In this document: positions 16,433-42,637 of the stretch, piece by piece | Numbering within the stretch: the first letter of the stretch is position 1 | How the letters are laid out: every line of letters begins with the position of its first letter | NCBI GenBank assembly: GCA_964427715.1 | Contig: CAYRUV010000002.1 | Span: forward strand, 85,663-149,662 | Length of the DNA: 64,000 nucleotides | Direction: 5' to 3' | Source: an uncultured archaeon | GTDB lineage: Archaea; Iainarchaeota; Iainarchaeia; Iainarchaeales; VGJJ01 | Position numbers and translations under genes: made by a program | Notes under the pieces: model-generated | Database searches by the model: none | What the model was told of the DNA's origin: nothing | What the model saw: the letters and a program-made list of their open reading frames with translations, nothing else

Positions 16433-16543
16433 ACTTCCGGTAATATAGTATATATGAAAACTAAAATCGAGTTTATGTTGTCTTATGAAACATAAGAACT
16501 ATTTAAAGTTAGAGCTTGTCTGAAAAAAAATAATCAGACAAGT

Positions 16544-18010: not shown

Positions 18011-18034
18011 TGCTTTGCAGGATAAAATGCTGCC

Positions 18035-19178: not shown

Positions 19179-19181
19179 CGT

Positions 19182-19559
19182 ATGCGTTCAACGGACTGGC
19201 TCATCTCAGTCGGCTTCACCATTTTTGCTTATCTCTTCTTTGTCAATTTTGAATCGCTTCGTTTAGGTGGGTTGGTTGTATTTTCATTTTTGTTCGCATA
19301 CTACATTTCCACGGATGAATGGCGTTTAGGTCGGGCCGTGTTGCTTTCTATCCTTCCCATCTTGTTGTCGGTGGCATTGTTGTTCATCGCGCCCCTATTT
19401 TGGACAACGGTCATTGAACAATCCGCGCGCGGTCCGGCATTGACGGCGGCGGCGTATGGTTTTTTGGTGATGCTCGTCCTTTCCATTCTCATTGGAATTC
19501 CCCTCGCGTGCGCGGGAGCGATGATTCGTCATTATCGCGTGGTGCGCGTGGCGGATTAG
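19182..19559 (+). CDS. polytopic membrane protein (about 4 TM)
   Basis: 125 aa, starting 3 nt after the previous gene, with four hydrophobic segments. Confidence 0.55.
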   Translation: MRSTDWLISVGFTIFAYLFFVNFESLRLGGLVVFSFLFAYYISTDEWRLGRAVLLSILPILLSVALLFIAPLFWTTVIEQSARGPALTAAAYGFLVMLVLSILIGIPLACAGAMIRHYRVVRVAD

Positions 19560-27661: not shown

Positions 27662-28066
27662 ATGAATGCCCGTGCACAGGTGGGGTTGGAATACCTCGTC
27701 TTCACTTCTTTCCTCTTGCTGGTCTCGGCAATCCTCTTCGGGTATTCATTTGTATCCTACTCCACCTCCGTGCAGACCATCCAGACGCAGAAGGCGGTGG
27801 ATGATGTGGCGGCGGCGGTGGATTTTGTGTATGCGAAGGGTCCTGGAAACACGGTCCTTTTGGACGTGCAATTGCCTTCCGGCCTTTCTGAGTTTAGGGT
27901 GGATCAGAATGTGGTCCGAGCTAATTTGGGGCAGGTGGGCGGGACCAGTACTTTTTTTGCATTCACGAAGGTGAAGATGGATCCAACCTATCTCTACTTC
28001 CAAGGGGGCATCTACACGCTGCGTGTGTCCATGGGGGATGTGAATGCGAGCGTGACCAACACATGA
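27662..28066 (+). CDS. pilin-like protein with class III (type IV prepilin-like) signal
   Basis: MNARAQVGLEYLVFTSFLLLVSAILFGY has the (K/R)(G/A)Q...EYL motif plus a hydrophobic helix. 134 aa. ORF-track start 27623 is a TTG. Confidence 0.7.
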   Translation: MNARAQVGLEYLVFTSFLLLVSAILFGYSFVSYSTSVQTIQTQKAVDDVAAAVDFVYAKGPGNTVLLDVQLPSGLSEFRVDQNVVRANLGQVGGTSTFFAFTKVKMDPTYLYFQGGIYTLRVSMGDVNASVTNT

Positions 28067-29667
28067 TTCAGGGTTCCCCCTCTTCGTCTCGGGGGCAGGT
28101 CTCGGCGGAGTATCTCACGGCGGCCATCATTGTACTTTCACTATTTCTGATCGTTTTTCTCTTCACGGAGCAAGTTCGTCTTCAATCATCCACGGCGCAG
28201 GATAATACGTTGGAGTTGGAGGTTTGTACAAAGGTCTCTTCGATCATCACGTACATGAGTTCAAATCCTCCCTATTCGGAGACGCAGTTTGAAGTATCGA
28301 AGGATTTGAATGTGGTGAATGGGAATATTTTTGTCGGGGATATTTTTTGTCCATTCTTGGGGTCGGCATCGAATACCGAGTTGTATGCGGGTATCATTCG
28401 TGCTTTTGATATCAATGGGACGGTCTTGTTCACGAATGATCTGAACTATTCTCCCTTCACTCCCACCGCAGGGGCGCCGGATGCGAATACGGATCAGTCC
28501 GAAGGGCTGATTCTCCTGCTGGATGATCAGGGGGACACGTGGTATTCGGAGGTGCTGGCGGATGATGTTTCGTATGCGGTGTCCACCGACAACTCGACGG
28601 TCGATCCGGACTGGGTGGAGTTCCGCTTCGCCAATGCAGGATTGACGAGCGCGAATCAGCCGACGAGCGTGGAGGTGTTAATCAAGCATTTTGAGTCCTA
28701 TCACGTGGGGTTGGGTGGAAGCAAGTCGATGGTGCAGTGCTACAATGGCGGGTCGTGGGTGGATATCAACGCCTACAGTCCGAGCTTCACGGAGGATTTT
28801 TACACGTCCCCCAATCTCGCGTGGTGCATTTCGGATTGGAATCTCGTGAATAATGCACGTGTTCGTATGACGTATGAGCCGACGGGGGCCAATCATACTA
28901 TTTCGATTGACTATGCGCGGTTAGACGTGGACTACACGCAGGATGGAATACTGCTCAATCTGTGGGATCATTCTCTGGATGTTCCACAGCCGGTGGATTT
29001 CTCAACGGATGTGAATAGTTCCGCCAACACGTTCGGGCCCGGTGCGGGGAATGATGGGTGGGACTGGAACAAGAATTCGTTTGGGGGAAGTCTTTCCTCA
29101 TCGGTTCAGTTCAATTCGGATCCCAATTACGATGGGAGTATTTTGGATAGCAATGTGGACGTGTCGAATCGTCTCGAGATTAAACTGGGGGGAAATATCG
29201 CCGGTTCTCCTTCCGACCCCGATGATAATTCTTCTGTAGGTCCGGTCGTGAGTGGGGCCTATGGTATTCAATTTGACGTGAATGCGGATGTGTACACCGC
29301 GCTCCAATCGCCGGGGGCGCAGCTCTTGTTGAGTTTTACCTATTACACGGACGCGGATGCGGCGTGGGGCAATGCATTGGATGCGGGGGAGGAGGCGTGG
29401 GTGAAGGCGCGCTTTGGGAATTCCTCCACGATGTCCTACTTAGGGAGTGCGCTCGATGCCAGTGACAACGATGGGGATTCCACGAATGAAATCTGGTGGA
29501 TGGATGAGCCTGCTGATGATGTCGAGTTTTTCTTGCAGGATGTGTCAGGGTACGTCACGGGCCCTGGCGCGTATTATTTGGAGATCGGGGTTGCTCTTTC
29601 TGATTGGGATGTGTCGACGGAGGGGTTCGGCATGTATTTAGATAACATCAACCTGGTGGTGGTCTGA
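28063..29667 (+). CDS. large pilin-like protein (534 aa) with class III signal
   Basis: SSRGQVSAEYLTAAIIVLSLFLIVFLF at the N-terminus, with an ATGA overlap onto the previous gene. The large beta-rich C-terminal region belongs to no family I recognise. Confidence 0.7.
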   Translation: MIQGSPSSSRGQVSAEYLTAAIIVLSLFLIVFLFTEQVRLQSSTAQDNTLELEVCTKVSSIITYMSSNPPYSETQFEVSKDLNVVNGNIFVGDIFCPFLGSASNTELYAGIIRAFDINGTVLFTNDLNYSPFTPTAGAPDANTDQSEGLILLLDDQGDTWYSEVLADDVSYAVSTDNSTVDPDWVEFRFANAGLTSANQPTSVEVLIKHFESYHVGLGGSKSMVQCYNGGSWVDINAYSPSFTEDFYTSPNLAWCISDWNLVNNARVRMTYEPTGANHTISIDYARLDVDYTQDGILLNLWDHSLDVPQPVDFSTDVNSSANTFGPGAGNDGWDWNKNSFGGSLSSSVQFNSDPNYDGSILDSNVDVSNRLEIKLGGNIAGSPSDPDDNSSVGPVVSGAYGIQFDVNADVYTALQSPGAQLLLSFTYYTDADAAWGNALDAGEEAWVKARFGNSSTMSYLGSALDASDNDGDSTNEIWWMDEPADDVEFFLQDVSGYVTGPGAYYLEIGVALSDWDVSTEGFGMYLDNINLVVV

Positions 29668-30824
29668 TGCCGGGCGACGAAAATACGCTTCCATTTCGTT
29701 TTGACTTGAAATGGCTCATCGGTCCGTTTGCGATTATTGGGGTGGCGGCGTTTCTGATTCTTTTTTTCCCTGTTCCTGAGATTACGTCTCCATCGGTGGT
29801 TGAAACGCCTCCTCAACCGATTCTTGTCACTCCTCTCGTGGATGTAGCGGCGGCCAAGGAGGCGGCGCTGCTGCAGTGTACGCATGAATATGTATGTTCT
29901 GCGTCGGATTGTCTCGAGAAAGTGTTGACGCATGTGGATTCGGCCTCGGTTCGCATCGATGCGGTGCTTCGTACGCCGGCGCCGAAGGAGTTTCGAGATC
30001 GCTTACGCATGGCGATTAAGCGCGGGGTGGTGGTCAATCTGGTGCTGGATTCGACGCTCAATCCTAAGTTTTTCTTGGAGGGGGCGAATATTCGCGTGAA
30101 GAAGATATCTCAGTTTGTGGCGACCAACTATTTGATTGTGGATCGTTCCGTGGTCGTGTATGGGAGCGATTCTAAAGTCTACGCGCAGCCTCCTGATGTG
30201 CTGCGGGTCGTGTGTGAGGAGCACGAGACGGAGCCCTACGTCTCATTGTTTGATCGCATCTGGGAAAAGGAATCGTCCTCTTTCACCTCCGAGACGGAGG
30301 AGGAAGAGGTTCTCGACGATAGTGAGCTCACGATTCCTTCGGAGGCATCTTCGTGTCAAGAAAGTGCATGCGGTCCGGACACATTTACGTGTGATGGTAC
30401 AACAAAGGTGTGGCAGGATTACCATTGCGATGGTTCCTGCGTCTACACGATTCTCCCTCTCTATTTCAGCCAGGAGTGTGGGTACACGAATCCGGGATTC
30501 GGTCCGGATGGGGAGCCGTTGATTGTTATTACGGAGACGGAGGTCGACGAGGGGCAGGTCGCGCAGGAGTTCATTGAGTTTACTTCCCTTCAATCGCTCG
30601 AGTTGTCGAATTTTACGTTGTTGAAGGACGGAGAATTGCTCATCACGTTTCCTTCTCCGTACATCCTGGACGGGTCTGCTAAGGTGTACACGGGTCCAGG
30701 CATCTCCACGACGAGTATCATTTACTTGAGTCAATCGGCCGCGTTGTGGAAAACGCCTGGCACCACTGCAACGTTGTTGAATCCCGATGGTGTGGTCGTG
30801 GTCACGCAGACGTTTGAGGGATGA
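29667..30824 (+). CDS. membrane-anchored protein with a degenerate PLD-like domain and a C-terminal lamin-tail-like domain (LTD)
   Basis: TM helix LIGPFAIIGVAAFLILFF. The PLD-like region (about 29889-30266: VRIDAVL...AIKRGVVVNLVLD...ATNYLIVDRSVVVYGSDS) lacks the H and K of HxK. A Cys-rich linker follows. The LTD-like end (about 30516-30821) reads EFIEFTSLQSLELSNFTLLKDGELLITFP...LWKTPGTTATLLNPDGVVV. Confidence 0.55.
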   Translation: MPGDENTLPFRFDLKWLIGPFAIIGVAAFLILFFPVPEITSPSVVETPPQPILVTPLVDVAAAKEAALLQCTHEYVCSASDCLEKVLTHVDSASVRIDAVLRTPAPKEFRDRLRMAIKRGVVVNLVLDSTLNPKFFLEGANIRVKKISQFVATNYLIVDRSVVVYGSDSKVYAQPPDVLRVVCEEHETEPYVSLFDRIWEKESSSFTSETEEEEVLDDSELTIPSEASSCQESACGPDTFTCDGTTKVWQDYHCDGSCVYTILPLYFSQECGYTNPGFGPDGEPLIVITETEVDEGQVAQEFIEFTSLQSLELSNFTLLKDGELLITFPSPYILDGSAKVYTGPGISTTSIIYLSQSAALWKTPGTTATLLNPDGVVVVTQTFEG

Positions 30825-30827
30825 ATC

Positions 30828-31316
30828 ATGCGCAATGCTCAGGCTAGTTTACCGGATCTCCTTTTCGCGACGTTCCTTTTCTTCATTCTTCTCGCGGGTC
30901 TGTATTACTACACGCAGTCTTTACAGTCCGAGGCGCAGGAGCGGTTGGATCGTCGCACGTTGGATGTCCTTTCTTCGAATCTTGCCGAGTTCATCATCAA
31001 GAACCCCGGGACGCCGGTCAATTGGCACGAATTGTCGGATCAGAATCAGATTGTGCAGATCGGTCTTGCGCAAAAGGATCGAGTGTTGAATCCTGAAAAG
31101 GTGGTGGCGCTCGTGAACATGGGAAATTTGGATTATGCGAACACGAAGACGAGGCTGCACCTGCCCTATTACGAGTTCTATATGACTTTTTCCGGGGGGG
31201 TTGACCTCGAGACGGGAATCGAACCCTCTGCCAATAAGAACGCGAGCGTGGTGCAACGATTGGTTACCATTGATGGGGTGGAAACGACCTTCACGCTGAC
31301 CCTGTATGAGCCCTAA
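30828..31316 (+). CDS. pilin-like protein (162 aa)
   Basis: MRNAQASLPDLLFATFLFFILLAGLYYY has a class-III-signal-like N-terminus. Confidence 0.6.
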   Translation: MRNAQASLPDLLFATFLFFILLAGLYYYTQSLQSEAQERLDRRTLDVLSSNLAEFIIKNPGTPVNWHELSDQNQIVQIGLAQKDRVLNPEKVVALVNMGNLDYANTKTRLHLPYYEFYMTFSGGVDLETGIEPSANKNASVVQRLVTIDGVETTFTLTLYEP

Positions 31317-34300
31317 TGTCTCTCCTCATTCCCGCCGCGGTTTCGCGTTCAGTGCGGATATCATCTTAGCCCTGGTTCTCGTGATTGGAATTCTCGTCTT
31401 CATTAGTGATTTCAATCCCCAATCGACGGATTTGGAGGAGCGTCGCATCACGGATCAGTATGTGGATGATTTGTTCGTTTCGCTGGACCACTCTGGGTAT
31501 GTGGCAAAGGAAATCGACACGAATGGGTTTTCGGGGGTGACGCTCCAGAATATTTACGGCAAGGCTCAATCCCTGCTGCCGGGTTCGTATGATTTTTACT
31601 TGCAAATGAAGAGTTATCCGGTGGATATCAATGCATGCCGCAATAGTGCGGATTTTGATTCGTGTTTTCCGGATGCGAATGTACAGTCTCTCTCACTTGG
31701 GACTCCTCTTCCGACGAATGCGCCTTTCATTCATGGGCGAAGGGTTTTTCTGAAGCAGCAGCCGGCGTCGCAGTGCACGGGTGCGTTGTCGGGTCCTTCG
31801 AATCCGAATCCATTTGATCTCTTTTCTAATTCCCCGTATGCCGCGTTGCAGTCGACGGATTTGAATATTCAGTTCGATGTAAACGTGTCTCCAGCCGGTC
31901 CATGGACGTGCGATCAGAACATCACGGTGTCGTTGTCCGTGGTGTCAAATACCGGGGCGAGGAAGGCCGTGGATATGGTTCTCGTTTTCGATCGTTCCGG
32001 TAGTATGAGCTATGATTACCTCCTCGACACGACGGATGCTCAGGCATTGGACTTGGATGGGAACAATGTCTTCGTGGCGGATGCCGGTTCGGGTTTGCGT
32101 GATATTAATGCGATTGATCCTGCTCTCACCACCTTGTTGGGAACGTACAACTCTCCCGGCACGGCTCGTGATGTGGATGTGGCGAGCGGGTATGCGTTTC
32201 TCGCAGATGGAACGTCCGGTTTGCGTGTCGTGAATGTAAACACCCCTGCGTCTCCCTCTTCCGTGGCTCAATTGCTCGTAGGGGGGGATGCCTATGGGGT
32301 GGCGTCCAATGGGAATGACACGTTTGTGGCCACGTATGGGACGGACACGAGCGATATTACTAACACGGGGACGGGAAACAACGAGCTGTATATCGGTCGG
32401 ACTGCCTCTCAATTGACGGGGGCTCAGTCCTTTCAGCCGACGGTGGCGATGATATCCGGGGTGGCGGTCACCGTGTTGAAGACGGGAAGTCCAAGCGGAA
32501 ATCTGACGGTGAGTATTCGCAGTTCCATCTCGGGGAGTGATCTTGCTTCGGCCACCATTGCATCCTCCAGTGTCACATCCTCTTATCAAACGCTCACGGC
32601 CACATTCACGAATGCATTGGGTGTGACGCCGGGTTCGACGTATTATATTGTTCTCTCCACCTCCGCGACGAGCAGTTCTAATTATTACGAATGGAGGGGG
32701 AGCAATAGCAGTTCGTATTCTGGGGGACAGGCCTACCAAAACACTACCAGTCAGAATTGGGATGCACGGTTCGAGACCTATCTCATTAATGGTCTGGTCA
32801 AGGTCAATACAACTACCAAATCCTCTCCCGTGGTGGTGGGGGCCTACGCGCTGTCGGATCCCTGGAGGATTCATCTCGTGGGAACTACTGCCTACGTGTC
32901 GGACGGTTCATCGGGGTTGAAAATATTTGATGTGAGTGGGAACACGCCTTCCTTGACGGGGACGTATAATACGTCCGGAAACGCCTATGATGCGGTGGTC
33001 TCGGGCTCGTATGCGTATGTGTCGGATGGTTCCGCGGGGTTGCGGGTGGTGAACATTTCCACTCCCTCGTCTCCCACGCTGAGTGCGACCTACAACACGC
33101 CAGGTACAGCGTACGCGACGCGACTGAATGGGGGTTATGCGTACGTGGCGGATGGGAGTTCGATACAGGTCATCAACATCTCAACTCCCACTTCTCCAGT
33201 GTTCGTTAAAAGCTACTCCACTCCTTGGAATTATCGCGACATGGAAGTTCGAGTTGTGGATGGGGTGACGTGGGGGTATTTGGCGATTGATAATTCTCTT
33301 GAAGGGTTGGCCACGGTGAATTTGGACACGGGGCCCAAAATCAATCAGGCACAGGTGGCGGCGACGTCATTTGTAGACTTCAATGGATGGGATTCGAATA
33401 ATGATCAGATGGGGTTTGTGAGTTATTCGAGCTCGGCGACCACGGACCAGCAGTTGACGAAGACGTATTCTCTTGTCAAGAGTGACATCAACGCCACCGT
33501 GGCCACGGGTGGAACGGCCACGGGTGATGGGATCAATGCGGCCTCGTCTGAATTGAATAGTGTTCGTCACAATCCGGCCGCGCTCAAGTTTCAAATTCTC
33601 ATGTCGGATGGTCTGACGAATGCCGGGGCCAATTCCTCGACGGCGGCCATCAACGCCGACAACAATGGGATTGTTATCTACACGATTGGGTTTGGTAAGG
33701 ATGCGGATGCCTCCGAGTTGTCGAACATCGCGACCATCACGGGGGGAAAATACTACCAGGCTAGTGATCAGGATGCGTTGATTGATGTCTACAGTCTGAT
33801 TGCCCAGGACATCCAGCTCATCGCGACGGATGCGAACATCGTAGCAGGGTTAGAGGATGGAATTACAATTGTGAGTGACGGAAACGGATTTCTCGTGGGG
33901 GGCGATATCCAGTTCGACATCAACACGCAAACGCCTCCTCCGTGGGTGGCGACGTACACGTTCAATATTCCGTGTACGGAAACGTTAGCCTGTTCCTCTA
34001 CTCTTCTTTCGGTGCCGAGTCCCGGGACGCATTTCGAATATGTGGATGTGAATGGGGTCACGCAGGAGCAGTCGTGGGACATCTTCTCGACGCAGTCATT
34101 CAATTATCGCGATCTCAACATCAGTATTCTATCTGGTGACTTAGTGGGTCCCTCGAACACGGACTTAACGGTTCTCGTGCAGAGTTTAGGGACGCTGGAC
34201 ACGAACTCCTCGTCGGTTTCGTTCTATCAAGGGGCGCCTCCCACGAATCTCCTCTCGACGGTGTCCATTCCCTCGTTGTGTGGTCAGTTGAATCCGGGGT

Positions 34301-34482
34301 GCGTGTCGTATTCGTACCAGTTCACGCAGAATGTGCAGGCGGAGGGGGAGTTGTATGCCGTGGTGAACCCGGATGGGGACATTCCTGAGTGTACGTACAA
34401 CGACCAGGATCTCATCTTTTGTTACTATACGCCCTCCACGCAGTTTTTCGCGTTGGAATACTGGGCGTGGCAGCGGGGGTGA
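31306..34482 (+). CDS. giant pilin-like adhesin (1,058 aa): prepilin-like N-terminus, VWA domain interrupted by an LVIVD-type beta-propeller
   Basis: HSRRGFAFSADIILALVLVIGILVFI at the N-terminus. MIDAS DRSGSMS is at 31990-32010. Seven LVIVD-like blades (for example GNAYDAVVSGSYAYVSDGSAGLRVVNISTPSSP) follow. The rest of the VWA lies at about 33340-33813 (MGFVSYSS...GGTATGDGI...ILMSDGLTN...IYTIGFG). Confidence 0.8.
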   Translation: MSPNVSPHSRRGFAFSADIILALVLVIGILVFISDFNPQSTDLEERRITDQYVDDLFVSLDHSGYVAKEIDTNGFSGVTLQNIYGKAQSLLPGSYDFYLQMKSYPVDINACRNSADFDSCFPDANVQSLSLGTPLPTNAPFIHGRRVFLKQQPASQCTGALSGPSNPNPFDLFSNSPYAALQSTDLNIQFDVNVSPAGPWTCDQNITVSLSVVSNTGARKAVDMVLVFDRSGSMSYDYLLDTTDAQALDLDGNNVFVADAGSGLRDINAIDPALTTLLGTYNSPGTARDVDVASGYAFLADGTSGLRVVNVNTPASPSSVAQLLVGGDAYGVASNGNDTFVATYGTDTSDITNTGTGNNELYIGRTASQLTGAQSFQPTVAMISGVAVTVLKTGSPSGNLTVSIRSSISGSDLASATIASSSVTSSYQTLTATFTNALGVTPGSTYYIVLSTSATSSSNYYEWRGSNSSSYSGGQAYQNTTSQNWDARFETYLINGLVKVNTTTKSSPVVVGAYALSDPWRIHLVGTTAYVSDGSSGLKIFDVSGNTPSLTGTYNTSGNAYDAVVSGSYAYVSDGSAGLRVVNISTPSSPTLSATYNTPGTAYATRLNGGYAYVADGSSIQVINISTPTSPVFVKSYSTPWNYRDMEVRVVDGVTWGYLAIDNSLEGLATVNLDTGPKINQAQVAATSFVDFNGWDSNNDQMGFVSYSSSATTDQQLTKTYSLVKSDINATVATGGTATGDGINAASSELNSVRHNPAALKFQILMSDGLTNAGANSSTAAINADNNGIVIYTIGFGKDADASELSNIATITGGKYYQASDQDALIDVYSLIAQDIQLIATDANIVAGLEDGITIVSDGNGFLVGGDIQFDINTQTPPPWVATYTFNIPCTETLACSSTLLSVPSPGTHFEYVDVNGVTQEQSWDIFSTQSFNYRDLNISILSGDLVGPSNTDLTVLVQSLGTLDTNSSSVSFYQGAPPTNLLSTVSIPSLCGQLNPGCVSYSYQFTQNVQAEGELYAVVNPDGDIPECTYNDQDLIFCYYTPSTQFFALEYWAWQRG

Positions 34483-35469: not shown

Positions 35470-36599
35470 GCGCCATGGATTGGGCAATGGGTCTATTTGC
35501 TCTGGTGGTGGGAGTGGGGGTTCTCTATTTCATCTTCACGCAGCCTCCCTCGGTGTCCACGGTCACGGGTCCTCCCACATTAACGATTCAAGGTCTTCCC
35601 ACCGCCTACGTGGGGGCGTCGCACACGGTCACGGTTCGGGTGACGGGGCACGGGAAGGAGGATATTCTTGTTCGGGGCGGGGGAGTTGAGCAGGTGCTTC
35701 CATGTTCCGAGTCCATTTGTTCGTATTCGCTGCCCTTCACGTTCACGGAGGAGGGTCCTCAGATTATTCACGCTGAATCGGGTTATTTGTCGGTGGATTG
35801 GAAATTGGATGTGAAGACGAAGACATCTATTTGTCTGGATGGCACCCCTGAGGGGGTGTGCAGTTCTCCTCCTCTGCGCTGCGTGAATCAATCATTGATT
35901 TCCGATTGTTCTTCCTGTGGGTGTCCGAGTGGTGAATCGTGTGTCGAGCATGCGTGCACGAAGGAACCTTTTTCATTCGCGCTCGATTTAGGGGTCCTGC
36001 CGACTCTCTACACCAGCGTCGCAGTTCCTATTCCTCTCGTCGTGACAAACACGTCGCCCGTGTCGGCGAGTGGATTATTTGTGGGTCGCGTGCAGTGGTA
36101 TGATTCCAGTTCCATCCTTTTAGGGGAGCAGTCGCTGCAGTTCCTGCTAGATGATTTTTCTTCTGGCGTGTCGGAAACATATTTCATTCCTGTCTTGCTG
36201 CCCAAGTCGGCGTCCTTTCTGAATGTCCAGTGGTTTCCTTCTGGGGGGGTGTATGATTCATCCACGCTCCTCGCCGCATTGTCTTCGTTCGAAAAAATCT
36301 CCGTGGTTGAGGACCAGAGTCCTCCTTCTCCTCCTGTGGGGTTGGATTATTCCATTGACGGATCCACGTTGATTCTCTCATGGAGCGCGAGCGTGTCGTC
36401 GGATGTGAAGGAGTACATTGTTCATCAGCAGAACGCGGCGACGGGAGGATTCACTACGTATTCGACGGTGGCCATCACACCGAACACTTCATACTCACTT
36501 ATCCTTCCGCCCGATGGAACTGCCTTCGTGTTGACGTCGCGGGATGAGGCAGGGAATGAAAGTGCTCCCACGTCGCCGATCGTCGTGAACGCCTCCTAA
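35466..36599 (+). CDS. membrane-anchored protein with Cys-rich segment and C-terminal fibronectin-III-like domain
   Basis: TM helix MGLFALVVGVGVLYFIF. A Cys cluster (CLDGTPEGVCSSPPLRCVNQSLISDCSSCGCPSGESCVEHAC) and an FN3-like end (PPSPPVGLDYSIDGSTLILSWSASVSSDVKEYIVHQQ) are present. ATGA overlap. Confidence 0.65.
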   Translation: MSAMDWAMGLFALVVGVGVLYFIFTQPPSVSTVTGPPTLTIQGLPTAYVGASHTVTVRVTGHGKEDILVRGGGVEQVLPCSESICSYSLPFTFTEEGPQIIHAESGYLSVDWKLDVKTKTSICLDGTPEGVCSSPPLRCVNQSLISDCSSCGCPSGESCVEHACTKEPFSFALDLGVLPTLYTSVAVPIPLVVTNTSPVSASGLFVGRVQWYDSSSILLGEQSLQFLLDDFSSGVSETYFIPVLLPKSASFLNVQWFPSGGVYDSSTLLAALSSFEKISVVEDQSPPSPPVGLDYSIDGSTLILSWSASVSSDVKEYIVHQQNAATGGFTTYSTVAITPNTSYSLILPPDGTAFVLTSRDEAGNESAPTSPIVVNAS

Positions 36600-36628
36600 C
36601 TTAAATAGTCGAACCCGGTGGGGGGTGC

Positions 36629-37129
36629 ATGGACTCCCGAAGCGATGCTCCCTCCCGGGGCTTTTGGAAAGGCTTGGCCCACATCCTCCATTTGCCTCCA
36701 GCCAAGGCGCCGTATTCCACGAAGGAAGTGGGGCCGGCGACCGGGTTTCGTCCCACTCCTGCGGCTCAATCACCTGTATCTTCTCCTCCGGTCGTGCGTG
36801 CGGCTCCCACTCCTGTTCCCATCTCAAAACCGGTGTCAGTTTCGAAGGCGCCGACAAAAGTAGCGTCTCCTCCCGCGACCATCTGGAAGGAGGAGCCGGC
36901 GACTCCCAACAGATTGGGTGAGGTGCCCATCATCACGGATTATGATCGCATTTTTGAATTGGTCAAGCGTCGACAGTCCATGAAATTGGATGAGATTGCG
37001 CGCGTGTTAGCCTTGAAAGAGGAGCAGGTCGCGCAGGAACTGCAGACGTTGGAAGACAATGGTCTGGTCGAGGTCAAGTATCCCGCGTTCGGGGAACCAC
37101 TAATCGTATACAAGAGGCCGGATGAGTGA
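36629..37129 (+). CDS. Pro-rich protein with C-terminal winged-helix domain
   Basis: 166 aa with a low-complexity Pro/Ala/Ser N-half and C-terminal YDRIFELVKRRQSMKLDEIARVLALKEEQVAQELQTLEDNGLVEVKY. It overlaps the ATPase gene by 8 nt. Confidence 0.6.
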   Translation: MDSRSDAPSRGFWKGLAHILHLPPAKAPYSTKEVGPATGFRPTPAAQSPVSSPPVVRAAPTPVPISKPVSVSKAPTKVASPPATIWKEEPATPNRLGEVPIITDYDRIFELVKRRQSMKLDEIARVLALKEEQVAQELQTLEDNGLVEVKYPAFGEPLIVYKRPDE

Positions 37130-38624
37130 TCGTATGGCGTTCAAGAAAGATGAATCGTATACCGTCCAATCGGACATTGCCGTAACCGTGGATATCGGGA
37201 AGGATGACGAGCAGTATGTCAAGCAGTACCTCCTGCATCTTCCCGAGTTCGGTCCGGGTACGCGAGCCATGTTGAATGATCTCAAGTCAAAGATCGTGAC
37301 GGAAGTGAACATTTCTTCCGAGAAGATGCTCGACACCAAGTTCGTGAATGATTTGAAACGAACATTTCGAGAGAAGGCGGATTCCCTCCTCACGCATTCG
37401 CTTCCTACTCTCACGAAGGAAAATCGGGACAAGCTAGTCACGGTCATGCTGAATGAGATGGCGGGACTTGGACCAATCGAATTCCTGTTGTCGGATGGAA
37501 ACCTGGAAGAAATTGTGGTGAATTCGGCCCAGGAACCCGTGTGGGTGTATCACAAGAAGCACGGGTGGTTGAAGTCCAATATTTTCATTTCACCGGAAGC
37601 CGATATTCAAAACTACGCAAGTATTATCGCGCGACGTGTGGGAAAGCAAGTCACCGTGTTGAATCCATTATTGGATGCGCACTTGGTGACGGGGGATCGT
37701 GCGAATGCCTCTTTATTTCCGATTTCATCTCGAGGAAACACCATCACTATTCGTCGTTTCCGCCGCGATCCATGGACCGTTACGGATTTCATCAACGCGG
37801 GAACATCCTCGGCTCCCCTGAGTGCGATGCTCTGGCTGGCGATGGAGTACGAATTGAACATCATGGTGTCGGGTGGAACCGGATCAGGAAAGACGACCTT
37901 GTTGAATGTCATGCTGCCCTTCATCCAGCCCAACCAGCGTGTGTTGACCATTGAAGACACGCGCGAATTGACGCTGCCGGACTTCCTGCACTGGGTCCCC
38001 ATGACGACGCGTGAACCTAACGCAGAAGGAAAGGGTGCAGTAGGGATGCTCGATTTGTTGGTGAACGCGCTCCGAATGCGACCAGACCGAATCATTGTGG
38101 GGGAAGTTCGTCGGCAGAAGGAAGCCGAAGTGATGTTTGAAGCGATGCACACGGGACATAGTGTGTATGCTACCGTGCACGCCAACACGGCCGAAGAAAC
38201 CATTCAGCGTTTGACGAGTCCGCCGATTGAAATCGCTCCTTCTTTGCTTGAAGCGGTGCACTTGAATGTGGTGATGTTTCGTAACCGTCGTTTAGGTGTG
38301 CGTCGTATTCTCCAGTTGGCCGAGTTCGTTCCTCAGAAGGCGGGGAATGAAGGAAAGATTCAGTTGAAGGCGAATATTCTTTTCCGCTGGAGGGCCCAGA
38401 CGGATTCCATCGAGAAGTACTCGGAATCCATTCGCTTGTTCGATGAGTTGGCCTTGCATACAGGATATACGGCTGGGGAATTGACGCAGAACTTATCCGA
38501 AAAAGAAAAGGTGCTCAATTGGATGGTCAAGGAGAAGCTCCGGGACATCAATCAGGTGGGGGCGGTCATGGCTGCCTACTATTCGGAGCCCGAATCCATC
38601 CTCAAGCGGGCTGGGGTCCGCTGA
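37122..38624 (+). CDS. type II/IV secretion-family ATPase (FlaI/ArlI / TadA/CpaF-like)
   Basis: Walker A SGGTGSGKTT, Asp box LTIEDTREL, Walker B PDRIIVGEVR, His box MHTGHSVYATVHA. Confidence 0.92.
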   Translation: MSDRMAFKKDESYTVQSDIAVTVDIGKDDEQYVKQYLLHLPEFGPGTRAMLNDLKSKIVTEVNISSEKMLDTKFVNDLKRTFREKADSLLTHSLPTLTKENRDKLVTVMLNEMAGLGPIEFLLSDGNLEEIVVNSAQEPVWVYHKKHGWLKSNIFISPEADIQNYASIIARRVGKQVTVLNPLLDAHLVTGDRANASLFPISSRGNTITIRRFRRDPWTVTDFINAGTSSAPLSAMLWLAMEYELNIMVSGGTGSGKTTLLNVMLPFIQPNQRVLTIEDTRELTLPDFLHWVPMTTREPNAEGKGAVGMLDLLVNALRMRPDRIIVGEVRRQKEAEVMFEAMHTGHSVYATVHANTAEETIQRLTSPPIEIAPSLLEAVHLNVVMFRNRRLGVRRILQLAEFVPQKAGNEGKIQLKANILFRWRAQTDSIEKYSESIRLFDELALHTGYTAGELTQNLSEKEKVLNWMVKEKLRDINQVGAVMAAYYSEPESILKRAGVR

Positions 38625-38639
38625 CGTGAGGCGCTCTCC

Positions 38640-39530
38640 ATGATTGCACGATTCAGCATGCCCTTGAACGTGCTGCCCATGCCGTTGCTGCGCTGGGCCA
38701 GCAAGCATTTGTTGGGATACGGGACGCAATTTGGAAAATTCATGCCACTCAAGGACATTGACATGAAGCGCGCCGAGTTGCCCGTGACGGTCAAAGAGTA
38801 TGCGACGATGAGTCTTGTTATTGTTCTCTTCTATTTTCTCTTCTTTTCACTAATTTTCTTCGTGATGGCGTTCCGTTTATTCAACCAGCTTAGTATTTTC
38901 CCCCTCGTCTTGAGTGGGATATTTTCTATTCTTGTTTTCGTGCAGCTCATCGCTTTCCCGATTATTCGTGTCAAGAAGAAGGTCCGCGAGTTGGATCGGA
39001 ATCTCGTATTCGCGCTGCGTACCATTCTGGTGCAGCTCCGCTCGGGTGTGAGTTTGTTCGAATCCATGAAGGTGGTGGCGGAAGGGAACTATGGGGCGGT
39101 GTCGCGGGAGTTCAAGAAAGCCGTGGATCAGATTTCCACGGGGACTATTCAAGAGGATGCTCTTGAACGAATCGCGGAGTACAATCCTAGCATTTATTTC
39201 CGTCGCGCATTGTGGCAAATTGTGAATGGTATGCGCGCCGGGGCGGATATTTCATTGGTGTTATCGGAGAGTGTGGACACGCTCACGGAGGCGCAATCTA
39301 TACAGATTCGAAACTATGAATCACAGATGAAAATCCTCTCACTGGTGTACATGATGTTGGGTGTAATCGTTCCGGCGTTAGGCATTACATTCCTGATTGT
39401 TTTGTCGTCGTTTCCGCAGATTAAAATCACCGACATGTACTTCTGGGTCTTGTTGGCGTTCTGTGGAGTCGCACAGTTCATGTACATGGGAATCATCAAG
39501 AGCAAGCGTCCGTCGCTGCTGGGGGATTAA
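38640..39530 (+). CDS. filament platform protein, single T2SSF domain (TadB-like half)
   Basis: Polytopic, with T2SSF-like cytoplasmic domain LRTILVQLRSGVSLFESMKVVAEGNYGAVSREFKKAVDQISTGTIQEDAL. Confidence 0.8.
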   Translation: MIARFSMPLNVLPMPLLRWASKHLLGYGTQFGKFMPLKDIDMKRAELPVTVKEYATMSLVIVLFYFLFFSLIFFVMAFRLFNQLSIFPLVLSGIFSILVFVQLIAFPIIRVKKKVRELDRNLVFALRTILVQLRSGVSLFESMKVVAEGNYGAVSREFKKAVDQISTGTIQEDALERIAEYNPSIYFRRALWQIVNGMRAGADISLVLSESVDTLTEAQSIQIRNYESQMKILSLVYMMLGVIVPALGITFLIVLSSFPQIKITDMYFWVLLAFCGVAQFMYMGIIKSKRPSLLGD

Positions 39531-39533
39531 ATT

Positions 39534-40547
39534 ATGCCCGCCCGCTCGTCTCTCCGCGCCTTGCAGGGGATTATGGATGCCTTCGAACAGCAGTTCGCCT
39601 ACCTAGGTATACGTGTGGCGTCGCGGAAGTTTTTCATCAACATGCTGATGTTCGCCCTGGTCGTGGGGGTCGTGTCCACGGTCTTCACCAGTGTAGTGCT
39701 GGGGTGGCCGTATTTTTTGGTGATGTTTGGTTTCGTGTTTGCCTTTGTGGGGACTATTGCTGGGGTGTATCTCTTTCTCGATCTGCAAGCGGAAGGGAGG
39801 GGAAAGCAGGTGGAGCGCGTGTTGCCCGATGCCTTACAATTGATTGCCAGCAACATCAAAGCCGGCCTCACCACGGAGCGTGCCATGTTGGTGAGCGCGC
39901 GTCCCGAATTTGGTCCGTTGGAAGTGGAGATGAAGCGGGTCTCGACGCGCATTCTGGCAGGTGTTCCCGTGGAGAAGGCCATCATGGAGATTCCCAAGCA
40001 CATCAAATCCACTCTTGTTGAACGGACCACATGGTTGTTGGCGCGCGGAATAAGTTCGGGCGGAGAGATTGCGGACTTGCTGATGCAATTGTCTCGAAAC
40101 CTGCGTACGCAGATTGCCTTGCAGAGCGAAGCGCACGCGTCGATTTCCATTTACGTGATTTTGATTTTCTTCTCGGCGGCGTTTGGGGGTCCGGCGCTCT
40201 ATGCGGTGTCGAGTTTCATTGTCGCCGTGATGTCGGCGCAAACGGCAGCGCAGCCTCACGTGGATTCCGCTGCTCTCGCGGGGGCGGGTTCTCGTTTTGG
40301 GGGTTTGGGTTCGTTCATCGGGGGAGAAAGTTCAATCATTTCGCCTGACTTCGTGGTGTTCTTCGCGCAGATCATGTTATTCGTAGGAGGAGTATTCGCC
40401 TCACTCATCTTAGGGGCGATTTCCACCGGAAAGGAGAAGGATGGGGTAAAGTACATCCCCGTCGTGATGCTCTGTTCGTTCGGATTATTCTATTTGATTC
40501 GTTTCGTTCTCGTCACGGCATTCGGTCCGTTGCTATTAGGGAAGTAG
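39534..40547 (+). CDS. filament platform protein, single T2SSF domain (TadC-like half)
   Basis: LPDALQLIASNIKAGLTTERAMLVSARPEFGPLEVEMKRVSTRILAGVPVEKAI plus TM segments, starting 3 nt after the previous gene. Confidence 0.8.
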   Translation: MPARSSLRALQGIMDAFEQQFAYLGIRVASRKFFINMLMFALVVGVVSTVFTSVVLGWPYFLVMFGFVFAFVGTIAGVYLFLDLQAEGRGKQVERVLPDALQLIASNIKAGLTTERAMLVSARPEFGPLEVEMKRVSTRILAGVPVEKAIMEIPKHIKSTLVERTTWLLARGISSGGEIADLLMQLSRNLRTQIALQSEAHASISIYVILIFFSAAFGGPALYAVSSFIVAVMSAQTAAQPHVDSAALAGAGSRFGGLGSFIGGESSIISPDFVVFFAQIMLFVGGVFASLILGAISTGKEKDGVKYIPVVMLCSFGLFYLIRFVLVTAFGPLLLGK

Positions 40548-40553
40548 CTCGAC

Positions 40554-40573
40554 TTTTTTTTTTAGAAAAAAAA
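40554..40573. terminator. bidirectional oligo-T terminator between convergent genes
   Basis: T10 (40554-40563), AG, then A8 (40566-73). This gives an oligo-T tract on each strand right after both convergent stops, the archaeal oligo-T termination signal. Confidence 0.6.
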
Positions 40574-40600
40574 GTTCGATCAAAAAGATTTTGTGGGTGG

Positions 40601-41323
40601 TTATACTTCAGAAAATAGTTCTTCTTTCGGCAGTACTTCCACACCTTGTGGAGTGATGCGTACGGGCCGGAGCTTGTCGCTTATTTTCGTGTCGCGCATC
40701 TTCAGTATTCCAATGGATCGGACGAATCGATTTTCGACGCGGGTGTGATAGAGTAGTACCACTCCATCTGCCACGTATTCTTCCAGCCCGTACAGTCCTT
40801 CGTGTTGTCCAGTCGAGGACTCATTGGTGATGACGGTGGTCACGTTGAGTTTTTTGAGCATCTTCCCCAAACTCAATATTCGTTTACGCGCATCGAGTTC
40901 GCGTTCAAAGTACAGGTGAAAGATAACGCCTGGGTCGATGACGAGTCTCGTGGCTTTGTTTTTGGTGACGAGATCTTCAATGCTGTCTCGGAGTTTGTCG
41001 AAATCATAGAGCTCAACGGTTTGGATAATGACTTTCCCCTTCCTCACGAGGGGTTCCAAGTCCCATCCAAAAATAGCGGCGGTTTCCATGAGCTCTTCGG
41101 GTTTTTCTTCGAGTGAGATGAAGACGCCTGTTTCATTGTGTTTCACGGCGCCGTGATAAAGGTATTGGAGGCAGAAGATGGTTTTTCCGCTTCCCGGATC
41201 GCCAGTCAGTACGACCAGGTTTCCTTTGGGGATTCCTCCCTCGATGAGTTCGTCTAGTCCAGTAATTTCCGTGGGGGTGCGTTCCACAATGGCTTGTGGG
41301 GGGAGTGGCATGATGTTCCTCAT
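40601..41323 (-). CDS. KaiC/RecA-like ATPase (ArlH/FlaH-like)
   Basis: 240 aa with GLDELIEGGIPKGNLVVLTGDPGSGKTIFCLQ (Walker A) and RLVIDPGV (Walker B-like). The start is at ATG 41323 or 41311. The ORF-track extension to 41923 overlaps the pilin gene. Confidence 0.85.
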   Translation of the reverse strand: MRNIMPLPPQAIVERTPTEITGLDELIEGGIPKGNLVVLTGDPGSGKTIFCLQYLYHGAVKHNETGVFISLEEKPEELMETAAIFGWDLEPLVRKGKVIIQTVELYDFDKLRDSIEDLVTKNKATRLVIDPGVIFHLYFERELDARKRILSLGKMLKKLNVTTVITNESSTGQHEGLYGLEEYVADGVVLLYHTRVENRFVRSIGILKMRDTKISDKLRPVRITPQGVEVLPKEELFSEV

Positions 41324-41452
41324 GCGATGCCGGGATTTATATGTGCGTATTGGGGGTGTGTCAATTGCGGATTCAAGAGGCACGTTTATATATGAAGCCA
41401 CCATTTCTGGGAAAGCCAATTGCCTTTCTTTGCAAAGGAGGAGAGCATACAT
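41324..41452. promoter_or_regulatory. divergent promoter region (KaiC-like gene / major pilin gene)
   Basis: ATTTATAT at 41335-41342 and TTTATATA at 41385-41392. An SD-like AGGAGG at 41436-41441 lies 11 nt before ATG 41453. Confidence 0.5.
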
Positions 41453-41917
41453 ATGAATTACGGAAAACGAGGACAATCGGCACTGGAATACTTGATGACT
41501 TACGGCTGGGCCTTGGTCGTTATTGTGATTGCGGTTGCTGCATTGGTTGTATTGATTAATCCGTCCACGATCCAAGGGGATCAGTGCGATGCTAAGTTCG
41601 GACCGTTCACGGTCAGTCAAAGCGATGTTAACGCGAGCGCCACTACGCTTGTGTTGGTGAATCAGACGGGACAAGCTGTCAACTTCACGTCGGCTTCGGT
41701 CGCTGGAACTACTGGTGGTAACACCACATTCGTTCCTGGCGCCACCACGGCGGGCGGTACGGGTTCGTCCATGATCGCCAACGAAACGGACAGTTTGATT
41801 GTCGACTGGGCCAACGATTTGAACTCGGGAGCCTACAGCTTGACGTACACGTTGGTGTACACGGCTGGACAGTTGTCCGGAGTCACCGCTACAGGAAGCT
41901 GCCGCGGAACGATCTAA
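41453..41917 (+). CDS. candidate major pilin with class III signal peptide
   Basis: MNYGKRGQSALEYLMTYGWALVVIVIAVAALVVL has the canonical archaeal prepilin motif KRG/QSALEYL. It is 154 aa and monocistronic, with its own TATA, SD and terminator. Confidence 0.85.
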   Translation: MNYGKRGQSALEYLMTYGWALVVIVIAVAALVVLINPSTIQGDQCDAKFGPFTVSQSDVNASATTLVLVNQTGQAVNFTSASVAGTTGGNTTFVPGATTAGGTGSSMIANETDSLIVDWANDLNSGAYSLTYTLVYTAGQLSGVTATGSCRGTI

Positions 41918-41935
41918 ATACAATAATCACGTCTG

Positions 41936-41973
41936 GGGATGCGGCGAGAGCCGCCCCCATACGCTCTTTTTTT
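41936..41973 (+). terminator. hairpin plus T7 terminator after the pilin gene
   Basis: GCGGC-GAGA-GCCGC stem-loop (41941-41954), flanked by GGGG and CCCC, then a TTTTTTT run at 41967-41973. Confidence 0.55.
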
Positions 41974-42007
41974 AACGCGAACAATCTTTCTCCACGTGGA
42001 CATTCGC

Positions 42008-42637
42008 ATGGCGGACATGAATATCGCAAAGGGCCCAGGATCCATGCTCTCGGACGAGCAGCTCCAGGAACTCCTGCGTCCGGGTAAAGAGTTTGAGGGC
42101 AAGCTTCAGGGATACCTCTCCACGTTTTCTCCCGGTACCTCCAATCTCATCATTGTGCGGGTGGGGGACTACAACGCGGCGTCTCGCGCGATTCTGAATT
42201 ATTTTCAGCGGGTCAAAACCCCCGGGGTGTATGTGACCATCAACAAGCCCTATTCGGATCTCATCAAGGGACTTTCCATTGTGCCTGAGAACGTGTGGTA
42301 TGTGGACAGCATCACTGCGCTGACTGGAAGGGGGACGCCAGACTTGCCTCGCGTGACGTATCTCGATTCTCCCCTCGCGCTAGTGGAGATGAATCTGGCC
42401 ATCGCGGATGAGTTGAAGAAGGTAGTGAGCAATGTAAAGTTTCTCGTGGTGGATTCCATCTCCACGCTGCTCGTGTATAATTCTTCTCAGTCCGTGGAAA
42501 AGTTCTGTCACACTGTTATTTCGAAGAATCGCAGCGACAGTGTGGTGGGGGTGTTTCTCATGATTGAGTCCGAGGAACATCGGGCGGTGGTGGACACGCT
42601 GGCGCAGTTCGTCGATAATGTCGTGTTCATCCGCTAA
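42008..42637 (+). CDS. degenerate KaiC/RecA-like protein lacking a P-loop
   Basis: RecA-like strand order (NLIIVRVGDYNAASRAIL...GVYVTINKPYSDL...FLVVDSISTLL...VGVFLMIESEEH...DNVVFI), but with no GxxGxGK(S/T). The start is uncertain (42008 or 42017; ORF track gives 41939). Confidence 0.5.
   Translation: MADMNIAKGPGSMLSDEQLQELLRPGKEFEGKLQGYLSTFSPGTSNLIIVRVGDYNAASRAILNYFQRVKTPGVYVTINKPYSDLIKGLSIVPENVWYVDSITALTGRGTPDLPRVTYLDSPLALVEMNLAIADELKKVVSNVKFLVVDSISTLLVYNSSQSVEKFCHTVISKNRSDSVVGVFLMIESEEHRAVVDTLAQFVDNVVFIR

Follow-up and report, generated by a model that had tools for sequence, protein, structure and literature searches.

A predicted DPANN-conserved type IV pilus locus with a modular adhesin candidate in an Iainarchaeum-like archaeon

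What kind of filament is built by an archaeal gene cluster that combines a single assembly ATPase with a platform divided over two genes, a KaiC-like pair and pilin-like proteins of very unequal size? The cluster lies at positions 27662-42637 of a 64-kb stretch of archaeal DNA, referred to here as the window, and consists of eleven tightly packed genes (g1-g11), downstream of which follow a KaiC gene (g12), a stand-alone pilin gene (g13) and a gene for a KaiC-like protein without a P-loop (g14). A first-pass annotation had described it as an archaeal type IV filament locus whose mix of traits fits no known system cleanly. Our results bear out the identification of the locus, with an essentially correct list of parts, but not its supposed singularity: the cluster is not an archaellum, and its architecture is shared by loci from several DPANN phyla and has published precedents. 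We conclude, with a probability of roughly 0.78, that it encodes a complete, DPANN-conserved archaeal type IV pilus distinct from the archaellum, through which the cell most likely attaches to surfaces or to a host. It is not a new class of machine; its odd features represent a normal, already reported DPANN design.

Assembly machinery and its conservation across DPANN archaea

The assembly ATPase g9 exceeds the cut-off of the Pfam T2SSE family by a wide margin (PF00437, E = 4.9e-40, 138 bits, cut-off 24.9), and hidden Markov model (HMM) searches likewise confirmed the two single-T2SSF genes and the KaiC, VWA and LVIVD domains that had been proposed for this locus. Among the NCBIfam models, g9 scored best with that of ArlI (NF058587, E = 6e-83), reaching 279 bits (cut-off 550), followed by the TadA-type model (207 bits, cut-off 373) and BasE (142 bits, cut-off 1000). 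When compared with references from the PDB by score only, it was closest to AfGspE (221 bits), with an alignment that spans residues 96-494 and includes the C-terminus, ahead of FlaI (184 bits) and CpaF (181 bits). The PilB3_C domain reaches 16.7 bits on g9 itself (cut-off 27) and is found in the precomputed annotation of several of its homologues. Many homologues of g9 carry the JGI label 'FlaI'. In four homologues (P0005, P0012, P0016 and P0100), the ATPase is interrupted by an intein (PF14890), which brings its length to about 670-680 amino acids.

The two platform proteins score 58 bits (g10) and 48 bits (g11) with PF00482 (cut-off 25.2) and correspond to different halves of the two-domain proteins found in other systems. 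While g10 aligns with positions 41-234 of the 484 residues of UpsF, and thus with its N-terminal half, g11 aligns with positions 271-423 of UpsF and 273-462 of ArlJ, and thus with the C-terminal half. The two proteins are paralogues (24% identity, E = 7e-10), and their arrangement is as would be expected from the fission of a two-domain platform gene. Just 3' of the platform genes, two related loci (L023:13488-14999 and L053:9478-11016) encode PMT_2-family glycosyltransferases with nine transmembrane (TM) segments, which are possibly enzymes of pilin glycosylation.

The host can be placed with the help of its coding content. The window encodes aTrm56, TFIIE-alpha, a wyosine radical-SAM enzyme, aIF2-gamma, aIF5B and Kae1, which identify it as archaeal, and since g9 is 79-84% identical to proteins from metagenome-assembled genomes of Candidatus Iainarchaeum (Diapherotrites), its host is a DPANN archaeon. 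Scanning a single genome for each species yielded 319 relatives of g9, the best 80 of which were considered; almost all of these come from DPANN archaea (51-84% identity), including members of the Iainarchaeota, Woese-, Aenigmat-, Micr-, Parv-, Alti- and Nanoarchaeia.

To count the genes of the locus in its relatives, the window proteins were searched by tblastn against loci whose sequence extends at least 8 kb upstream (48 loci) or at least 9.5 kb downstream (41 loci), and 57 loci were informative for the platform. In 56 of the latter, the ATPase gene is followed by both platform genes. Among the upstream genes, g8 is the most widely retained (38/48 loci), followed by g5 (34/48), g4 (33/48), g1 (31/48), g6 (30/48) and g7 (16/48). 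On the downstream side, homologues of g13 occur in 33, KaiC (g12) in 31 and DUF7504 proteins (g14) in 22 of the 41 loci; where both of the latter are present (25 loci), they lie no more than 1.5 kb apart in 23 cases. Two distant contigs subjected to gene calling showed the same gene order. Given this recurrence across DPANN phyla, the layout represents a standard DPANN design rather than a one-off mixture. Six loci from bins assigned to Falkowbacteria, Chloroflexota, Thaumarchaeota and Methanosarcinales (L034, L052, L053, L062, L067 and L082) also contain a DPANN-type ATPase (55-62% identity) and a split platform; they are most likely mis-binned DPANN contigs.

Pilin-like proteins and the modular protein g5

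Pilin-like N-termini were recognized with a FlaFind-style rule ([KR][GA][ALIFQMVED][ILMVTAS], then a hydrophobic stretch), which g1, g2, g5 and g13 pass. The rest of the window contains only four further matches, two of them in polytopic membrane proteins. All five prepilin-like N-termini reported at first for the packed block are present, and those of g1, g2 and g5 satisfy the rule; g4 (RNAQAS) and g6 (CRGVFF) fail its strict form in this genome. Their homologues in other loci display [KR]GQ... and [KR]G[VI][LF]F..., respectively, at the same position, so that both proteins can be regarded as class III-type at the family level. Judged by the rule and by the family motifs together, the N-termini thus stand up to prepilin prediction. 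Across homologues from 84 related loci, all six pilin-like families retain a basic residue and Gly/Ala, followed by a hydrophobic stretch, in dozens of loci. The motifs derived from these homologues read [KR]GQ[SA]ALEYLMTYGWAL for g13, [KR][GA]Qxx[LV]EYL for g1, [KR]GQ...D for g4, [KR]G[VI][LF]F[TS] for g6 and [KR]GF[AV]F[ST]xD for g5. In g1, g2 and g13, the residues at positions +1 and +5 are Gln and Glu, a signature of the EppA-processed pilins of Methanococcus that is missing from those of Sulfolobus and Haloferax (PMC3875500).

The candidate major pilin is g13. Its residues Q8 to V25 are near-invariant across 47 homologues, and its AlphaFold2 (AF2) model (predicted local distance difference test score, pLDDT, 79) shows an N-terminal helix of 29 residues (7-35) followed by a beta-sandwich. 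The two best Foldseek matches of this model are archaeal type IV pilins, from Pyrobaculum (8fk7, E = 2.5e-3) and Sulfolobus (Aap, 8q30, 3.8e-3); a sequence search of the PDB gave nothing useful for g13. As proposed at first, this gene is monocistronic: it is preceded by a canonical archaeal TATA box and, about 10 nucleotides (nt) 5' of its ATG, by the Shine-Dalgarno-like sequence GGAGGAG, and it is followed by a hairpin with a T7 run that is likely a terminator. The 141-nt spacer (41312-41452) that separates it from the divergently transcribed KaiC gene contains a near-palindromic TTTATATA/TATATAAA element, which could act as a TATA box in either direction.

Of the remaining pilin-like proteins, g2 possesses a large C-terminal region of unknown fold without any match in Pfam, NCBIfam or PDB sequence searches. 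Its homologues were found in 13 of the 48 loci, in the long form only in close relatives and with about 120 amino acids in more distant ones. The small protein g4 matches DUF7287 weakly (E = 0.15). This domain was detected in six of 82 mixed members of the accessory families, whose gene families were left unmapped (best E = 7e-6), and was not found in four g4 homologues that were rescanned one by one. No Pfam match was obtained for g6.

The largest member of the set, g5, is a modular adhesin candidate that consists of a class III-type N-terminus, an alpha/beta N-domain, a split VWA domain and two C-terminal beta-sandwich regions. Pfam identifies both a VWA domain (E = 7e-19) and LVIVD repeats (E = 4e-26). 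The VWA match starts only at residue 678 and profile position 16 (residues 678-828, profile positions 16-171), whereas the first strand of the domain together with its DxSxS motif is found at residues 222-233, with DxSxS itself at 229-233. Based on this displacement, the AF2 model and Foldseek, we read the domain as split. In the model (pLDDT 85), residues 238-672 are all-beta and residues 678-840 alpha/beta, and Foldseek ranks a VWA protein first, followed by propellers of the WD40/DDB1 type. The VWA domain thus appears to be interrupted just past the metal-binding motif, where an insert of about 430 residues is predicted to hold an LVIVD beta-propeller. All residues of the metal ion-dependent adhesion site (MIDAS; D229, S231, S233, T737 and D768) are invariant among 33 homologues. 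Such a domain-in-domain architecture is unusual for a pilin-like protein. In Streptococcus sanguinis, modular pilins with a VWA domain are proven to act as tip adhesins (PMC8179133). g5 has no detectable sequence homology to the N-terminal families of TadE/TadG.

Operon layout and accessory genes

The eleven genes of the block (27662-40547) are open reading frames (ORFs) on the + strand with verified coordinates, and a Logan contig of identical sequence that had been gene-called independently contains the same gene set. Both lines of evidence agree with the packing described by the first-pass annotation, including the ATGA junctions at 28063 and 35466, TGATG at 29667 and TGAATG at 34483; in addition, there is an 11-nt overlap at 31306 and an 8-nt overlap of g8 and g9 at 37122, and the other gaps measure 3-29 nt. 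A pattern search for the canonical archaeal TATA box (TTTAWATA) returned seven matches across the window and none inside the block, weak evidence that is consistent with a single operon comprising g1-g11. A search for paralogues of the locus proteins elsewhere in the window found none. The coordinates of all features are collected in Table 1.

Table 1. Features of the pilus locus and its immediate neighbours. A slash marks the predicted cleavage site; lengths are in amino acids.
Feature	Position	Strand	Length	Assignment	Basis
g0	27002..27583	-	193	transglutaminase-like (CEP76-peptidase-like/DUF553)	Pfam CEPT76_peptidase E = 3e-6, DUF553, Transglut_core
g1	27662..28066	+	134	predicted minor pilin, class III signal RA/QVGLEYL	FlaFind-like rule
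g2	28063..29667	+	534	pilin-like, RG/QVSAEYL, large C-terminal region	FlaFind-like rule
g3	29667..30824	+	385	N-terminally anchored protein, Cys-rich linker	weak Pfam matches
g4	30828..31316	+	162	minor pilin-like, RNA/QASLPDLL	conserved family N-termini
g5	31306..34482	+	1,058	modular pilin-like adhesin candidate, RG/FAFSADI	Pfam, AF2, Foldseek
g6	34483..35469	+	328	minor pilin-like, RG/VFFTF	family N-termini
g7	35466..36599	+	377	membrane-anchored, predicted Ig-like/FN3-like ectodomains	N-terminal hydrophobic helix
g8	36629..37129	+	166	cytoplasmic Pro-rich protein, C-terminal winged-helix module ending ...YPxxGxP	sub-threshold HTH matches
g9	37122..38624	+	500	assembly ATPase, T2SSE/VirB11 superfamily	Pfam T2SSE
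g10	38640..39530	+	296	platform, N-terminal-half type, one T2SSF domain	Pfam T2SSF E = 1e-15
g11	39534..40547	+	337	platform, C-terminal-half type, one T2SSF domain	Pfam T2SSF E = 1e-12
g12	40601..41311	-		single-domain KaiC-like ATPase, intact Walker A GDPGSGKT, convergent with operon	Pfam KaiC E = 3e-61
TATA box	41385..41392	+		canonical archaeal, TTTATATA	sequence, ~60 nt 5' of g13
g13	41453..41917	+	154	candidate major pilin, KRG/QSALEYLMTYGWAL, monocistronic	FlaFind-like rule
Hairpin	41936..41974	+		G+C-rich hairpin and T7 run after g13, likely terminator	read from sequence
g14	42008..42637	+	209	P-loop-less KaiC/RecA-like, DUF7504	Pfam DUF7504 E = 3e-9
g15	42650..43792	-	380	charged protein, helical-looking from composition	no Pfam match

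The gene directly upstream of the ATPase gene, g8, had been described as coding for a Pro-rich winged helix-turn-helix (wHTH) protein that is translationally coupled to the motor. Its stop codon indeed overlaps the start of g9 by 8 nt, and the module is recurrent in the family, lying directly 5' of the ATPase gene in all 38 loci counted above; the underlying HMM matches (HTH_20, HVO_A0114 and TrmB, as well as ArsR/Lrs14-type) are sub-threshold in this copy. Homologues match TrmB, HVO_A0114 and HTH_24. The family ranges from 87 to 1,010 amino acids and lacks TM segments save in two members, with the C-terminal module as its constant part. It is conceivable that g8 is a motor adaptor instead of a transcription factor.

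The KaiC-like pair downstream of the block was confirmed as described at first, with a convergent ATPase gene and a partner without a P-loop. The ATPase g12 scores 148-172 bits with KaiC models overall, among them KaiC_arch_3 (148 bits, cut-off 249), and only 44 bits with the ArlH model NF052589 (cut-off 215). In g14, whose start is more likely at 42008 than at 41939, the sequence GDYNAASR takes the place of the Walker A motif of g12. A BLASTP comparison of g12 with g14 was not significant; their kinship rests on the DUF7504 match of g14 and on the KaiC Pfam matches of its homologues.

Two anchored proteins of the block had been given more specific names than the data support. The product of g3, listed as a PLD-like/LTD protein downstream of the pilins, is encoded by the third gene of the block; it does match LTD (E = 2e-3, 19.2 bits, cut-off 34.3) and Regulator_TrmB (E = 2e-4, 20.9 bits, cut-off 22.2), in each case below threshold, and has no match in the PDB. 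We rejected an assignment as PLD nuclease, as the sub-threshold Pfam match is to the non-catalytic C-terminal domain of TrmB and inspection by eye revealed no HxK motif. With homologues in just seven of the 48 loci, all from close relatives, g3 is a predicted lineage-specific accessory. For g7, the FN3 label finds no support in this copy, which has no Pfam HMM match, FN3 included, and no PDB match; among the accessory-family members scanned, one matches fn3 and two match PKD, and these are presumed, though unmapped, homologues of g7.

On its upstream side, the operon is flanked by the divergent gene g0, homologues of which occur in 18 of the 48 loci, mostly upstream and on the opposite strand. 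Its product is probably an accessory of the pilus locus, and transglutaminase-family peptidases have been linked to clade 1 and some euryarchaeal type IV pilus loci (Makarova 2016, PMC4858521). At the other end, g15 is kept in six of the 41 loci, in close relatives only, so that its membership in the locus is uncertain; coiled-coil proteins are known from other DPANN pilus loci (PMC11291902).

Further away, the window contains a tRNA-Met gene (14954-15024) followed by a stretch of low GC content that extends to about 22000 (0.41-0.46, compared with about 0.50-0.53 elsewhere) and includes a tyrosine recombinase gene (17075-18010, -); the region 14954-22000 is probably an integrated mobile element. 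Two giant ORFs on the - strand, at 3757-11907 (2,716 amino acids, one FG-GAP match) and 19489-23010 (1,173 amino acids, no Pfam match), lack class III-type N-termini and likely encode surface proteins. The interval 1747-2838 (-) harbours two tRNA-Lys genes with UUU and CUU anticodons, about 1 kb apart and flanking small ORFs, and an Hsp20 gene is located at 1066-1704.

Function of the pilus and relation to known systems

Gene content, domains, N-terminal motifs, the predicted folds of g13 and g5 and the conservation across DPANN archaea together suggest how the machine may work. Cleavage after the [KR][GA] of the six pilin-like proteins would be carried out by a prepilin (class III signal) peptidase whose gene would lie elsewhere. 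The ATPase g9, presumably a hexamer, would dock on a heterodimeric platform, in which g10 takes the place of the N-terminal and g11 that of the C-terminal half of a PilC/ArlJ-type protein with two domains, and extract pilins from the membrane into the filament. In this filament, g13, expressed from its own promoter and limited by its own terminator, would serve as the major subunit, while g1, g4 and g6 may join g2 and g5, the large modular pilins, in a priming or tip complex. Such a complex could display the MIDAS-bearing VWA domain and the beta-propeller of g5 as an adhesin, with g3 and g7 acting as membrane-anchored accessories. Finally, g12 and its degenerate partner g14 may modulate the motor or its expression, and g8, translationally coupled to the ATPase, may act as a dedicated regulator or, in the cytoplasm, as an adaptor of the motor.

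Several observations weigh against an adhesion pilus of this kind. The filament of this organism is predicted from its genes, and the role of g5 as a putative tip adhesin, including both its position at the tip and its adhesion target, is suggested only by analogy with bacterial pilins. Pfam Class_IIIsignal (PF04021) stays sub-threshold throughout (11-21 bits versus 23.7; 16-21 bits in g1 homologues) and matches none of the 47 g13 homologues at E <= 1, and the Foldseek E-values of g13 are weak. Moreover, the signals for an assignment to a clade appear divided, the pilin signature, the large number of minor pilins, the split platform and the transglutaminase-like protein pointing to Epd-like systems and the ATPase to clade 2, and a role in DNA uptake is conceivable for the same set of genes. 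No A24 prepilin peptidase was detected in the window, either by a screen for GxGDxK-type motifs combined with TM counting or by Pfam, in line with the first-pass annotation, or within 10 kb in the 84 related loci by a motif-plus-TM screen with eight spot checks by Pfam. Pilin processing is therefore assumed. An unlinked peptidase gene would not be unusual, since most archaeal genomes with such an ATPase contain at least one A24 peptidase (Makarova 2016, PMC4858521), and in published DPANN clusters a prepilin peptidase gene is likewise missing although kaiC is present twice (PMC9563170). Multi-TM proteins considered as peptidase candidates were rejected as Yip1, PMT_2, UbiA, VIT1 or DsbD proteins.

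Three other readings of the locus can be weighed against the adhesion pilus. An archaellum or an archaellum-derived organelle of rotary motility, with g12 as ArlH, can be set aside with near certainty. The ArlI model is the best NCBIfam match of g9, and JGI labels many of its homologues 'FlaI', but both ArlI and ArlH fall far short of their cut-offs, and AfGspE, a clade 2 protein, outscores FlaI and can be aligned with g9 through its C-terminal domain. The KaiC-like gene adjacent to the operon is far nearer to KaiC models than to ArlH, the platform is split where ArlJ is a single two-domain gene, and there is no domain of archaellins, ArlF/G, ArlC/D/E or ArlX. Also unlikely is a new, hybrid class of filament outside any described group that would unite traits of the archaellum (KaiC), of bacterial Tad systems (split platform, VWA pseudopilin) and of archaeal pili. 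The failure of g9 to reach any of the curated equivalog cut-offs (ArlI, TadA-type and BasE) would agree with such a class, but is expected of any uncharacterised subfamily, and archaeal pilus systems are known to show each of the 'foreign' traits. A hybrid would further account for the fact that most accessory proteins lack a Pfam family, for a major pilin of 154 amino acids, compared with the short Epd and Flp pilins, for an ATPase that points to clade 2 alongside +1 Gln/+5 Glu pilins that point to the Epd type, and for the disagreement of two published classifications on split-platform DPANN loci (Makarova 2016, PMC4858521, versus bioRxiv 10.64898/2026.04.22.720090). Against this stand the published DPANN clusters that combine TadA/B/C with two kaiC genes and no peptidase (PMC9563170) and the presence of the same layout in at least 80 DPANN loci.

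It is similarly improbable that the locus specifies a competence-like pilus for the uptake of DNA or nutrients, which would serve a DPANN cell unable to make nucleotides and use its large pilins as capture devices. Pilus-mediated import of DNA and transfer of nutrients have been hypothesised for DPANN archaea (PMC9563170), and the locus is strongly conserved in their reduced genomes, but the window revealed neither a nuclease domain nor a gene resembling ComEC, ComEA or DprA. The weak lamin-tail-like region of g3 might be taken to favour uptake, yet this protein lacks the HxK catalytic motif and is restricted to close relatives, whereas the VWA domain of g5, with its intact MIDAS, and the beta-propeller represent an architecture of protein adhesion. 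The presence of a single ATPase, without a dedicated one for retraction, also speaks against uptake; this does not preclude retraction, given that CpaF is reported to be bifunctional (PMC11300603). The adhesion pilus hence remains the preferred reading. A more far-reaching version of it is doubtful: a fixed set of four to five minor pilins would carry g5 as a split-VWA tip adhesin for host recognition by these putatively symbiotic archaea, possibly also a counterpart or even the ancestor of TadG, with the wHTH module, invariably joined to the 5' side of the ATPase gene, as a new cytoplasmic motor adaptor and not a transcription factor, and KaiC and DUF7504 as a heteromeric, ArlH-like switch, in a system intermediate between clade 2 and Epd/Tad. 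Such an intermediate status, if true, would explain why the ATPase resembles clade 2 while the pilin signals are Epd-like and the platform is split.

Comparison with described systems shows where the first-pass annotation had drawn the boundaries between them too sharply. It had regarded one two-domain platform gene as the archaeal norm and a split platform as a trait of bacterial Tad systems. However, two single-T2SSF platform genes define the archaeal Epd-like systems, the inferred source of bacterial TadB/TadC, and Epd-like pili and bacterial Tad systems share two one-domain platform genes that arose by fission as well as a FlaH-like secondary ATPase (Denise 2019, PMC6668835). Two tadC-like genes are also found in clade 1 and in many euryarchaeal loci of clade 2 (Makarova 2016, PMC4858521), and DPANN loci with two platform genes comprise 'System 1' and some 4A loci (bioRxiv 10.64898/2026.04.22.720090) as well as pilus islands with TadB and TadC (PMC6393860 Fig. 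2A). Similarly, the KaiC-like partner had been taken for an archaellum trait, but KaiC-family ATPases adjoin clade 2 and 4B pili (Makarova 2016, PMC4858521), and KaiC/FlaH-like ATPases have been reported beside clade 2, 4B and Epd systems (PMC4858521, PMC6668835). Split platforms are thus not exclusive to bacterial Tad systems, nor are KaiC-like partners exclusive to archaella.

Among the characterized systems, the Epd pili of Methanococcus maripaludis and the related Epd-like and System 1 loci resemble the present locus in their two single-T2SSF genes, many minor pilins and large adhesin-like class III proteins. Further points in common are the +1 Gln/+5 Glu motif, seen here in g1, g2 and g13, a transglutaminase-family protein encoded nearby, an ATPase of the FlaH/KaiC-like type and an operon of similar size. 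Unlike the Epd major pilin, which has about 62 residues in its mature form and no globular domain, g13 comprises 154 amino acids and a predicted beta-sandwich, and it thus departs from the short (about 60-75 amino acids), non-globular major pilin by which Epd-like systems are defined. The ATPases may differ as well: that of clade 1 (Epd-like) belongs to the CpaF family (arCOG01819), whereas g9 scores higher with AfGspE than with CpaF. A gene for the Epd-type EppA peptidase with nine TM segments is absent from the locus and the window, and the locus showed none of the DUF2341 adhesins known from clade 1.

Clade 2 of Makarova, represented by AfGspE (AF0659, PDB 2OAP; arCOG01817 according to Makarova 2016 Fig. 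S4, PMC4858521), Haloferax PilB3/PilC3 and PilB4, provides the closest solved ATPase to g9, with near end-to-end similarity. Nanoarchaeal ATPases are among its members, and its loci frequently contain two tadC-like genes and are linked to KaiC ATPases, as is the present one; its major pilin gene lies apart from the ATPase operon, as it does here. Weak matches to the haloarchaeal domains DUF7287/7288/7289 occur among the scanned homologues of the pilin families. In contrast to g1, g2 and g13, however, the Haloferax pilins lack the +5 Glu, and System 2 is described with a single platform gene (bioRxiv 10.64898/2026.04.22.720090), whereas here there are two. The arCOG02911 signature pilin of clade 2 and FleN/MinD were not identified here, in searches that used no arCOG profiles.

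More distant systems share individual parts. Bacterial Tad/Flp systems (type IVc) likewise have a TadA-like ATPase gene followed by two one-domain platform genes and several pseudopilins, one of them VWA-bearing (TadG-like), and g9 retains a clear similarity to CpaF; a secretin (RcpA/CpaC), TadZ/CpaE (MinD-type), TadD and a pilin with a Flp motif were not detected among the window proteins, and the host is archaeal. The platform order here is N-terminal half, then C-terminal half, which according to Denise 2019 (PMC6668835) correspond to TadC and TadB, respectively. The archaellum (ArlB/F/G/H/I/J/CDE or X) has homologous ATPase and platform superfamilies and a partner with a KaiC fold, but its ArlJ is one two-domain gene, the cut-offs of ArlI, ArlH and ArlJ are all missed here, and neither archaellins nor ArlF/G, ArlC/D/E or ArlX gave a Pfam or NCBIfam match in the locus. 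PilB of Streptococcus sanguinis, composed of a pilin module and a vWA domain, parallels g5 in its class III N-terminus, grafted VWA and complete MIDAS; g5 differs in being archaeal and much larger, with a propeller-split VWA domain and extra beta-sandwiches, and its pilin module showed no detectable sequence homology to bacterial modular pilins.

The closest counterparts are the pilus or Tad-like clusters published for DPANN archaea (Nanohaloarchaeota, Undinarchaeota, Woese-, Pace-, Nano- and Aenigmarchaeota), in which a VirB11/CpaF-type ATPase gene precedes a TadB/TadC-like pair. By their published description, they likewise contain two kaiC-like genes, no linked prepilin peptidase and many unannotated proteins with signal peptides, and conserved pilus loci have been reported across DPANN (Hamm et al. 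2024, PMC11291902). Homologues of g9 in the phyla concerned share 51-57% identity with it. The present locus comes from an Iainarchaeota (Diapherotrites)-like lineage that the papers on these clusters have not singled out. It can serve as a fully parsed example of pilus machinery that is shared by most DPANN archaea. Pilins are mostly unannotated in the published clusters; here, N-terminal motifs delimit five or six pilin families, the majority of which still go under the label 'hypothetical'. These families include the VWA/propeller pilin and are accompanied by a wHTH protein whose gene abuts that of the ATPase. As the host interactions of DPANN archaea are poorly understood, g5 can now be nominated as an adhesin candidate for the attachment of these cells to one another or to surfaces.

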